Counted from the first letter of the stretch, positions 37,401 to 40,400 are shown. The stretch is DNA of 64,000 bases from Escherichia coli (GCF_036507355.1 NZ_AP027877.1), one strand, 5' to 3'. Program-made: the numbers.

Positions 37401-40400
37401 CTGACTGTTCTTTATTAGCGGAAGAATCCGGACCGTACTTCTTTATCCAGGCGTAAAGGCTGTGGGTGGTGATATCGAGACGTGTTGCAACGCTGGCAAC
37501 AGAATAACCGCGATCAACAACCTGTTTGACTGCTTCAATTTTAAACTCTTCGGGATAACGCTTACCGCTCATGGGCACCTCTCTTTAAGCCATCTTAAAT
37601 GACTCTGAGGTGTCTGTTAAACCCGTGGCGATTCAGGAAGAGTTCGAAATACGCAGCGAAATTGTTGGAATTCAAATTAGTTGATCTTGACGTTCTTAAG
37701 CGAACATACTTCTTTTTTGCAGACCGTTATCTGGCAGATGTAGTGAAGTTTGAAAACCTATGTGGTGATTTAGAGCATACATCGCAGAAGGCTAGGGATG
37801 AAAAAATTAAGGCCATGCAATTAAAGACAAACGACCCTGAAATTCAGTTAGGTGTTTGTATTTTTGTTTGTTTCAGGTTGCGAAACAACCTTTTTCATGG
37901 ACCAAAATGGCGTTATTTGCTTGATGGGCAAGAGGATTTGCTCTTAATTGCCGGAAATTTTATACATTCTATTCTATTACAGGTGCCTAGTAGAGATGGC
38001 TGGGAATTCAAGAATATTTTAACTTCTACTGATTAGCTTTGATTTTCCATAATCAACCCGCCATAATCATGTCATCGGAGCCTGAACAACTCCGGTGACT
38101 TCTGCGCTTTGAGGGGACTCAAAGTGCAAACGACAATCAGAACACCTTTCAACCAGTCACAGATGCAGAAATGCACCTGCAATATCTTGCATCCAACGTT
38201 TGACCTCTGCGGAGGTGAAGCGTGAACCTCCCACAAGACGGCATCAAATTACATCGCGGTAACTTCACTGCTATCGGTCAGCAGATCCAGCCTTATCTGG
38301 AGGAAGGCAAATGCTTTCGCATGGTGCTTAAACCGTGGCGGGAGAGACGCAGTCTTTCCCAGAATGCACTCAGCCACATGTGGTACAGCGAAATCAGTGA
38401 ATACCTCATCAGCAGGGGTAAAACGTTCGCCACTCCAGATTGGGTAAAAGATGCTCTCAAACACACTTATCTCGGTTATGAAACCAAAGAACTGGTTGAT
38501 GTCGTAACCGGTGAGATCACCACTATCCAGTCGTTACGCCATACCTCCGATCTTGATACCGGAGAGATGTATATCTTCCTGTGTAAGGTTGAAGCCTGGG
38601 CGGTGAATATTGACTGCCACCTGACTATTCCGCAGAGCTGCGAGTTCCAGCTGCTGCGCGACAAGCAGGAGGCGTAATGGCTACACCGCTTATTCGTGTC
38701 ATGAACGGACACATCTACAAAGTACCAAATCGTCGTAAGCGTAACCCTGAGCTGAAGCCATCCGAAATACCAACTCTGCTCGGATATACCGCCAGCCTGG
38801 TTGATAAAAAATGGTTGCGACTGGCAGCAAGGAGGAATCATGGCTGATTTGAGAAAAGCAGCGCGTGGTCGGGAATGCCAGGTAAGAATCCCTGGCGTAT
38901 GTAATAGCAATTCTGAAACGTCTGTACTGGCACATATCCGGCTGGCTGGATTGTGCGGTACCGGTATCAAACCGCCAGACCTGATTGCCACCATCGCATG
39001 TTCTGCCTATCACGACGAAATCGACCGCCGCACACATTTTGTCGATGCTGAGTATGCAAAAGAATGCGCGCTGGAAGGTATGGCGAGAACACAGGTTATC
39101 TGGCTGAAAGAGGGGGTTATTAAGGCGTGAATACTTACAGCATCACATTACCCTGGCCTCCGAGCAATAATCGCTATTACCGCCATAATCGCGGGCGCAC
39201 GCACATCAGCGCAGAGGGGCAGGCATACCGCGATAACGTCGCCCGAATCATTAAAAACGCAATGCTGGATATCGGCCTGGCTATTCCTGTGAAAATCCGC
39301 ATTGAGTGTCACATGCCGGATCGCCGTCGCCGTGACCTGGATAATCTGCAAAAAGCTGCTTTTGACGCACTTACCAAAGCAGGTTTCTGGCTGGATGATG
39401 CTCAGGTCGTTGATTACCGCGTTGTGAAGATGCCGGTTGTCAAAGGTGGAAAGCTGGAACTGACCATCACTGAACTGGGAGATGAATGATGTTTGAGTTT
39501 TATACGGCAGAACTTCTTCGCCACCGCTGGATGCGCCTGCGCTTATATCGTTTCCCCGGTTCTGTTTTGACCGATTACCGAATACTGAGGAATTACGCCA
39601 AAACCCTGACAGGAGCAGGAGTATGAAGTCAGAGATAACAATCAACTAATACTGTTTTGTTGATTTTTGCTTGTAATTGGCGTTCTGGTCTGATTTTTGT
39701 GGAGTAAGTTGATGCGTGATATTCAGATGGTTCTTGAGCGTTGGGGAGCGTGGGCGGCTAATAATCATGAAGATGTGACCTGGTCGTCCATTGCCGCCGG
39801 TTTTAAGGGATTAATTCCTTCAAAAGTAAAATCTCGCCCACAATGTTGTGACGATGACGCGATGATCATTTGCGGGTGCATGGCCCGTCTGAAAAAGAAC
39901 AACAGCGATTTGCATGATTTATTGGTGGACTATTATGTCGGCGGCATGACTTTTATGGCGCTTGCACGTAAGCATGGGCGATCTGATTGTTGGGTTGGCA
40001 GGATGCTCCAGAAAGCTGAGGGCGTAGTGGAGGGTATGCTGATGGTGTTGGATCTCCGATTGGAGATGGATGCTGATTGTTCGAAATAATTAAAGGAAAA
40101 GTTGCTGTCTGATTGTCATTAGTCTAACATTTTAAATGTTGGAATCGCAACGTAGTTATTATCATATAACAGCTTGTTTCCTGATTTAGCCAGCCTCCCC
40201 AAAGGCTGGTTTTTTTCTAATAAGTATTATTTCGGGTAGGGATTTTATTGTTTAACCCATAATAATTCATTGACATTGAATCCCAACTTTTGAGCGGTTC
40301 GCACATAGTCTGCTTTTACTTTATCTGGAATAGTTGGGGTCCTTGCCAGAATCCATAGGTATTCTCTGTTCGGACCACTGACAAGAGCATACTTATACTC

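Follow-up and report, generated by a model that had tools for sequence, protein, structure and literature searches.

A dead 3′ remnant of a HEPN-like accessory gene beside an IS3-family element in a lambdoid prophage of Escherichia coli

A truncated gene lying against one end of an insertion sequence (IS) of the IS3 family was analysed in a window of 64,000 nt from Escherichia coli (GCF_036507355.1, NZ_AP027877.1); the window is the whole stretch of DNA studied, and positions are counted from its first letter. The fragment occupies 37636–38036 and is what is left, the C-terminal two thirds, of a small accessory ('moron') gene that a lambdoid prophage carried in its nin region. That the window copy is a recent, dead remnant is well supported. 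The reading favoured here, with moderate confidence, is that its parent was a gene for a solo HEPN-type RNase with a single-gene role in abortive infection or exclusion when intact. The fragment and its parts are as follows.

37636–38036, plus strand: 3′ fragment of a solo HEPN-like gene of 195 amino acids (aa), made up of 2 nt of codon 63, codons 64–195 and the stop codon (38034–38036); 37% G+C.
37875–37907, plus strand: motif codons R143-L-R145-N-N-L-F-H150-G-P-K153, with the invariant R-phi-x3-H (HEPN-type) motif of the family (R143 at 37875–37877, R145 at 37881–37883, H150 at 37896–37898 and K153 at 37905–37907).
37599–37635, plus strand: start of a hybrid open reading frame (ORF) of 145 aa, with its ATG at 37599 within the IS end, continuing into the fragment.

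The preliminary description of this DNA, made by eye, had quoted the peptide ...CIFVCFRLRNNLFHGPKWRYLLDG... from the frame leaving the IS end, and this is indeed what is read there, in the plus-strand ORF 37599–38036. The length it gave for the fragment, 133 aa, is corrected to 132 (codons 64–195). Its view of the gene as truncated is borne out, the first 63 codons being gone and full-length 195-aa homologues being present in intact lambdoid prophages. A megablast search with 37636–38100 against 5,426 complete E. coli genomes returned one full-length match, in strain LR-50 (99.8% identity), which corresponds to the 3′ part of a 588-nt gene (L001:4814–5401) encoding a 195-aa 'hypothetical protein' (WP_029396318.1). 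Similarity to the intact LR-50 gene opens exactly at 37636, and the alleles differ by 1 nt in 465, a G/T difference at 37640 that gives N64K. The junction between IS and fragment is found in none of the 5,426 genomes, and identity to E. coli in the chromosomal parts of the window is 95–99%, so that the source is probably an IS-rich Escherichia/Shigella lineage absent from that set. Near-identity to the intact allele indicates that the deletion was recent.

Residues 1–63, gone from the fragment, include the whole of a long helix (35–56) on which E52 (invariant) and F44 (nearly so) are found. When the surroundings of the fragment and of the intact gene were scanned for promoters and terminators, nothing exceeded shuffled expectation, and no plus-strand promoter-like site or Shine-Dalgarno sequence was seen upstream of the hybrid ORF, which is probably an accident of the junction. 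The window copy, without its Glu-bearing helix, promoter and ribosome-binding site, is therefore taken to be a recent and dead remnant.

The parent protein belongs to a widespread family. A word-seeded search recovered 40 close relatives, all labelled 'hypothetical' and all with the invariant block CFRLRNNLFHGPKW; they come from Escherichia, Klebsiella, Citrobacter, Enterobacter and Salmonella. An exhaustive hidden Markov model (HMM) search of 1.84 billion representatives returned 555 proteins at E ≤ 1e-3, nearly all of them 160–180 aa long; as a family size, 555 representative clusters is a lower bound. In a 44-sequence alignment with a mean identity of 23%, E52, R93, R145, N147, H150, G151 and K153 are invariant, while F44, Y94, R143, F149 and Q161 are nearly so and position 146 is N, H, C or S. 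The same conservation was seen in an alignment of 135 sequences, and of 147 family representatives, 140 have R-x4-H-G-x-K. Taken by itself the pattern R[NHD]xxxH is common by chance, since against the crude background of the locus set 17% of ORFs 150 aa or longer contain it, so that the evidence lies in the conservation of the motif and not in the occurrence of the pattern. All family members are single-domain, standalone proteins; long fusion ORFs (311–440 aa) were rejected as artefacts of upstream read-through in high-GC DNA.

When Pfam, PHROGs and PADLOC were run on the fragment and two full-length homologues, the only library match was to PHROG 27260, of unknown function (E 2e-9 with the intact protein and 2e-7 with the fragment). 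This PHROG has no annotation and confirms only that phage-derived relatives had been clustered earlier. The family is unnamed in Pfam, NCBIfam and PADLOC, and lies outside every named HEPN family tested.

HEPN domains have a four-helix, up-down fold built of two alpha-hairpins, with frequent inserts between helices 2 and 3, and carry their motif where core helix 3 ends and the loop to helix 4 begins (Anantharaman et al., PMC3710099). Confident AlphaFold2 models of two family members are all-helical (P0001, 195 aa, pLDDT 83.9; P0050, 166 aa, pLDDT 94.8, pTM 0.90). In both, the motif closes a 20-residue helix (130–149 in P0001, 113–132 in P0050); the His is the first residue past it, and a short turn then leads into a final long helix. 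This placement agrees with that of the motif in HEPN domains. The invariant Glu (E52 in P0001, E36 in P0050) sits on the long N-terminal helix, with several short helices between. The HEPN pattern R-x4-6-H, with a polar residue after the Arg, is matched by R145-N146-N147-L-F-H150. When structures were compared, 10 HEPN structures from at least five HEPN families were among the top 60 of 48,164 chains, and six of them were in the top 10; SO_3166, AF0298, YutE and Cas13b were among the lower-ranked HEPN matches, and the P0001 model returned the same HEPN families at lower Z.

On the basis of the motif, its position and the predicted fold, and not of sequence-profile homology, the intact family is likely to belong to the HEPN superfamily. 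The HEPN-like R-x4-H that had been noticed by eye is supported by motif, conservation and fold, and the assignment, which draws on structure prediction and motif conservation and on no database family, appears stronger than that first judgement. The preliminary description had been ready to abandon it if no HEPN-family match came to light and full-length homologues lacked the R and H; the outcome lies between, an HMM match to a HEPN family being absent and both residues being retained in the full-length homologues.

Intact copies of the gene are found in the nin region of lambdoid prophages in strains LR-50 and B1S11, where the gene order is replication O/P, ren, variable cargo, HEPN-like gene, and then ybcN-ninE-ybcO-rusA-ylcG-Q. 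The cargo upstream of the intact gene consists of a P22AR-C protein, small hypothetical proteins and a theta-like gene. The allele at this position in B1S11 is 76% identical and is annotated as 225 aa. In many enterobacterial prophages the theta-like gene (a homologue of DNA polymerase III theta/HOT, about 61–105 aa as called) lies directly 5′ of the HEPN-like gene or overlaps it (L001:4553–4827, and also L088, L091, L099, L118, L121, L123 and L137), and it is kept even where the HEPN-like allele is only 26–32% identical to that of E. coli. The copy in LR-50 is annotated as frameshifted. Either the two genes form a functional pair or the site is a fixed hot spot at which alleles are replaced.

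Pattern scans located the family 80 times in bacterial genomes and 51 times in IMG/VR viral contigs, most of these contigs being prophage-like. The host genomes belong to Alpha-, Beta- and Gammaproteobacteria and, in some cases, to Bacteroidota and Acidobacteria, and the gene is also present on ten plasmids, seven of which are conjugative. Neighbour clustering by blastp and phmmer across 126 non-redundant loci revealed no conserved partner gene, such as an antitoxin or sensor, and a Pfam census of 122 immediate neighbours gave 104 different families, the commonest being DEAD helicases, AAA_21, SMC_N, AAA_15, ResIII and OLD-like TOPRIM. Neighbours in operon-like arrangement include a 1030-aa AAA_21/SMC ATPase, a 1113-aa ResIII/SNF2 helicase, HerA, a HATPase_c_3 protein, T5orf172/MUG113, a C5 methylase, ArdC, a 2084-aa NACHT protein and an OLD-like AAA_21+DUF4435 protein. 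Three further arrangements of this kind place the family gene directly upstream of a 730-aa Piwi-domain pAgo (L062:5824–8648), directly downstream of a CAP12/Pycsar-type TIR protein (L044 and L046:5069–6450), and directly after the specificity (S) subunit of a type I restriction-modification (R-M) system (L081:4252–6183). The gene might act as an accessory effector in some systems, and not always alone.

The G+C content of the fragment and the other cargo remnants is 36–41%, that of the nin core genes about 50%. Low G+C together with diverse defence and mobile-element neighbours is a signature of mobile defence-island cargo. Given such neighbours and the lack of a conserved partner, the intact family is therefore read as a solo HEPN-like accessory or defence gene, probably an RNase.

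For the intact protein we infer HEPN homology, RNase activity, a role in defence and trigger-dependent control. It would be a helical, standalone, metal-independent endoribonuclease of 165–195 aa, by analogy with known HEPN proteins, in which dimerisation would form a composite active site from the two R145-N-N-L-F-H150 motifs, with help from the invariant Glu52. Its role in prophages, plasmids and defence islands would be that of a single-gene abortive-infection or exclusion factor, and the protein would stay inactive until met by a phage-derived trigger, like HepS of the Salmonella prophage Gifsy-1, to which we return below. The fragment had at first been described as lying in an accessory slot and as probably the dead remnant of a gene for defence or a toxin; its status as a remnant is well supported, and a role in defence is suggested by gene context and by the analogy with HepS. 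A broader proposal is offered tentatively, and may well prove wrong: the intact relatives would form an unrecognised HEPN family of single-gene, trigger-activated abortive-infection RNases, possibly anticodon nucleases with a phage trigger of their own, carried by prophages, conjugative plasmids and defence islands across Proteobacteria, Bacteroidota and Acidobacteria, with a lambdoid hot spot just downstream of the theta-like gene at which one very divergent allele is exchanged for another.

A number of results weigh against the assignment to HEPN or against a role in defence. Pfam searches of 46 members matched no HEPN family (RnlA-toxin_DBD was matched by 1 of 44, at E 0.17), PADLOC v2 gave nothing consistent on sets of 44 and 135 members, the 135 showing only scattered single-member matches (E 6e-5 to 0.04) with no family matched twice and CARF_HEPN matched by one of them (E 0.007), and NCBIfam (June 2026) gave nothing consistent on nine members. 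Sequence searches of the PDB with two family profiles found no relatives, and no significant profile similarity to a recognised HEPN family was obtained. In hhalign comparisons with HepT/DUF86, only a 7–9-residue motif aligns (lRNNLFH to LRNiAVH), at a probability of 0.3–0.6%; the targets were SO_3166, an Aphanizomenon HEPN toxin and a 28-sequence HepT alignment (0.3% for the last), the HepT sequences having been drawn from the PDB with a hand-made DUF86-like consensus and the alignment built from their homologues. Foldseek against the PDB gave no match at E ≤ 0.001. Searches of the literature by accession, PHROG number and motif turned up no paper on any member, and tblastn with two members against 50,697 isolated phage genomes found no match. 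Finally, the intact gene lies in the delayed-early operon driven from pR and no promoter of its own was detectable in the promoter scan, while a defence role presupposes expression in the lysogen.

This last point bears on a different reading of the intact gene, in which the product is a HEPN-type RNase that serves the phage, is made only from pR during lytic growth, and acts in host RNA shut-off, transcript processing or anti-defence; the copy in the window would be just as dead. The gene points the same way as the delayed-early nin operon and adjoins or overlaps the theta-like gene upstream, a phage-type gene that precedes it in several prophages, very divergent alleles included. However, most members of the family lie outside prophages, on chromosomes and plasmids beside R-M, pAgo, TIR, HerA, OLD-like and STAND genes, the isolated phage genomes contain none, and the low G+C and variable slot fit prophage defence cargo such as HepS, so that service to the phage is considered unlikely. 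In a further reading the protein is not HEPN at all, but an unrelated helical bundle whose R-N-N-x-x-H-G-x-K patch binds some other ligand or partner, the likeness being convergent or coincidental. This appears quite unlikely, since the invariant residues are precisely R, phi (N/H) and H with a Glu upstream of them, the motif falls at the HEPN-specific structural position, and the enrichment of HEPN structures at the top of the structure comparison was repeated with an independent model; the best local hhalign match to HepT is also motif to motif, though not significant.

The deadness of the window copy can be questioned as well. The hybrid ORF (37599–38036) is uninterrupted and its coding sequence undecayed, with a single nucleotide change, and the truncated copy might still be made as a 145-aa protein that keeps some activity, as a dominant-negative or free catalytic fragment. 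Against this, the upstream promoter-like site and Shine-Dalgarno sequence are absent, the lost residues hold the helix with E52 and F44, and the recency of the deletion accounts for the intact coding sequence. Continued function is extremely improbable, and the favoured reading of the window copy remains that of a dead fragment of a solo HEPN-type RNase gene.

How the gene was broken can be seen from the DNA on both sides of the IS, which carries the following features.

36407–37635, minus strand: IS3-family insertion sequence of 1229 bp, with orfA (37294–37578) and orfB (36425–37237) both on the minus strand.
36164–36406, plus strand: 5′ part of the gene for a small membrane protein (aa 1–81 of 134), which the other IS end interrupts.
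35524–35767, plus strand: 3′ remnant of a gene annotated 'T6SS-associated protein TagO', its left end being the junction of prophage and chromosome.
38222–40089, plus strand: nin-region genes ybcN, ninE, ybcO (DUF1364), rusA, ylcG and Q of the same prophage, 3′ of the fragment.

The IS ends in imperfect terminal inverted repeats of 38 nt (36407–36444 and 37598–37635), and full-length copies, 99.9% identical and annotated as IS3-family transposase, are present in many E. coli genomes. It is flanked by two different truncated genes, and a target-site duplication is absent (gca versus gga). No second IS copy, which would explain the deletion by recombination between IS copies, was found within the window. 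The stop codon of the truncated membrane-protein ORF comes from the IS terminus. This protein, which has two to three transmembrane segments, is intact in E. coli S21 (WP_032227093.1, 134 aa, L140:5647–6051), with 99% nucleotide identity up to 36407, and in S21 the left-flank gene lies about 2.4 kb upstream of the equivalent position.

The simplest history is an IS insertion followed by an adjacent deletion of about 2–2.5 kb of cargo. An IS3-family element would have inserted in the accessory slot, and an IS-associated deletion would then have taken everything from codon 82 of the membrane-protein gene through codon 63 of the HEPN-like gene. The fragment would in this way have lost its start, its upstream signals and the Glu52 helix, and because of these losses it would be unable to fold or act like its parent. 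A different IS3-family element is present in S21 in the same ren-ybcN slot, just upstream of ybcN (L140:8450–9678), which suggests that the slot is a recurrent IS target. The locus is a plain example of prophage accessory cargo eroded through IS-mediated deletion.

The preliminary description placed the fragment at the prophage edge, which is only partly right, as a further 880 bp of prophage nin-region DNA lies to the left of the IS. The true edge is at 35523/35524, where a truncated dsdA (3′ end, minus strand) is fused to the middle of the TagO-like gene, and this chromosome/prophage junction is a deletion junction. The DNA to its left encodes the DsdA C-terminus on the minus strand and has a chromosomal match in 5398 of the 5426 E. 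coli genomes; emrY is found directly beyond dsdA, upstream of the junction. Around the junction (35250–35568) an integrase, an att site and a left prophage arm are all absent. With chromosomal DNA to the left of 35524 (the dsdA 3′ end followed by emrY), the prophage lacks its entire left arm as well. On the other side, 37636–39616 matches LR-50 (L001) at 96.6% identity, and the downstream nin genes are accordingly present.

In other strains the TagO-like gene occupies the ren-ybcN slot of lambdoid prophages. In S21 and MSI001 it directly follows ren, and the gene for the 134-aa membrane protein also lies between ren and ybcN. Within a lambdoid nin region the name 'TagO' looks like a misnomer or the mark of an unexplored moron.

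The intergenic stretch of about 140 nt after the fragment (38036–38180) recurs at 82% identity in the nin region of LR-50 (L001:2997–3135), and its first 65 nt have a match in more than 450 E. coli genomes without the HEPN-like gene. It may represent a conserved boundary at which nin-region cargo is swapped. Further downstream, between Q and the lysis genes (40245–43004), are genes for a Blc-like lipocalin lipoprotein (minus strand), a YbgA/DUF1722 protein and a helix-turn-helix (HTH) protein. This arrangement is seen in about 1000 complete E. coli genomes, and the slot is the one in which Stx phages carry stx.

The truncated gene is without consequence for the host, and it matters as a lead to a family comprising at least 555 representative clusters that are annotated only as 'hypothetical protein' and are not covered by Pfam, NCBIfam (June 2026) or PADLOC v2. 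Several known HEPN systems can be set beside it. The toxins of MNT-HEPN (type VII) systems, HepT/DUF86 (1wwp, 1jog, 5yep, 7ae2, 8xdj), are adjoined by an MNT antitoxin, whereas the present family has no adjacent MNT: NTP_transf_2/MNT is absent from the most frequent families of the 122 immediate neighbours and from the neighbour clusters, and the only Polbeta nucleotidyltransferase seen was at one locus, 4 kb away on the opposite strand. Unlike HepT, the family lacks the tyrosine of H-x-Y and has G-x-K after the His, and a large helical insert brings it to 165–195 aa, compared with about 130 aa for HepT. The lactococcal Abi proteins (AbiD/AbiF Abi_2, AbiU2, AbiV and the C-terminal domain of AbiA) and Tha of S. 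aureus prophages differ from it in size and architecture, and 44 members gave no Pfam match to Abi_2, HEPN_AbiU2, HEPN_AbiV or HEPN_AbiA_CTD.

The nearest functional analogue of the intact family is HepS (STM14_3211; PDB 9OIJ/9OIK) of Salmonella prophage Gifsy-1, an abortive-infection tRNA anticodon nuclease that is a constitutive, inactive tetramer until it is opened by the tail-tip protein J of an incoming phage, whereupon it cuts tRNA anticodon loops (PMC13043305); Tha stands as a second example beside it. No homology of the family to HepS was found, and a search for the HepS sequence in the Gifsy-1 (LT2) record gave no obvious copy. The likeness lies in a single HEPN domain, the lack of a partner gene, and a lambdoid accessory slot downstream of the replication genes, which for the present family is the interval between the replication/ren genes and ybcN. 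The HepS motif, R-N-x3-H (R100, N101, H105), also resembles the R-N-N-L-F-H of the family. The family is thus cargo of the same lambdoid slot in which a solo HEPN defence was recently found. If the reading is true, it would add one more single-gene HEPN defence, and one more family for defence-finder tools, and it would provide, alongside HepS, a second test case for the silencing and triggering of solo HEPN nucleases.

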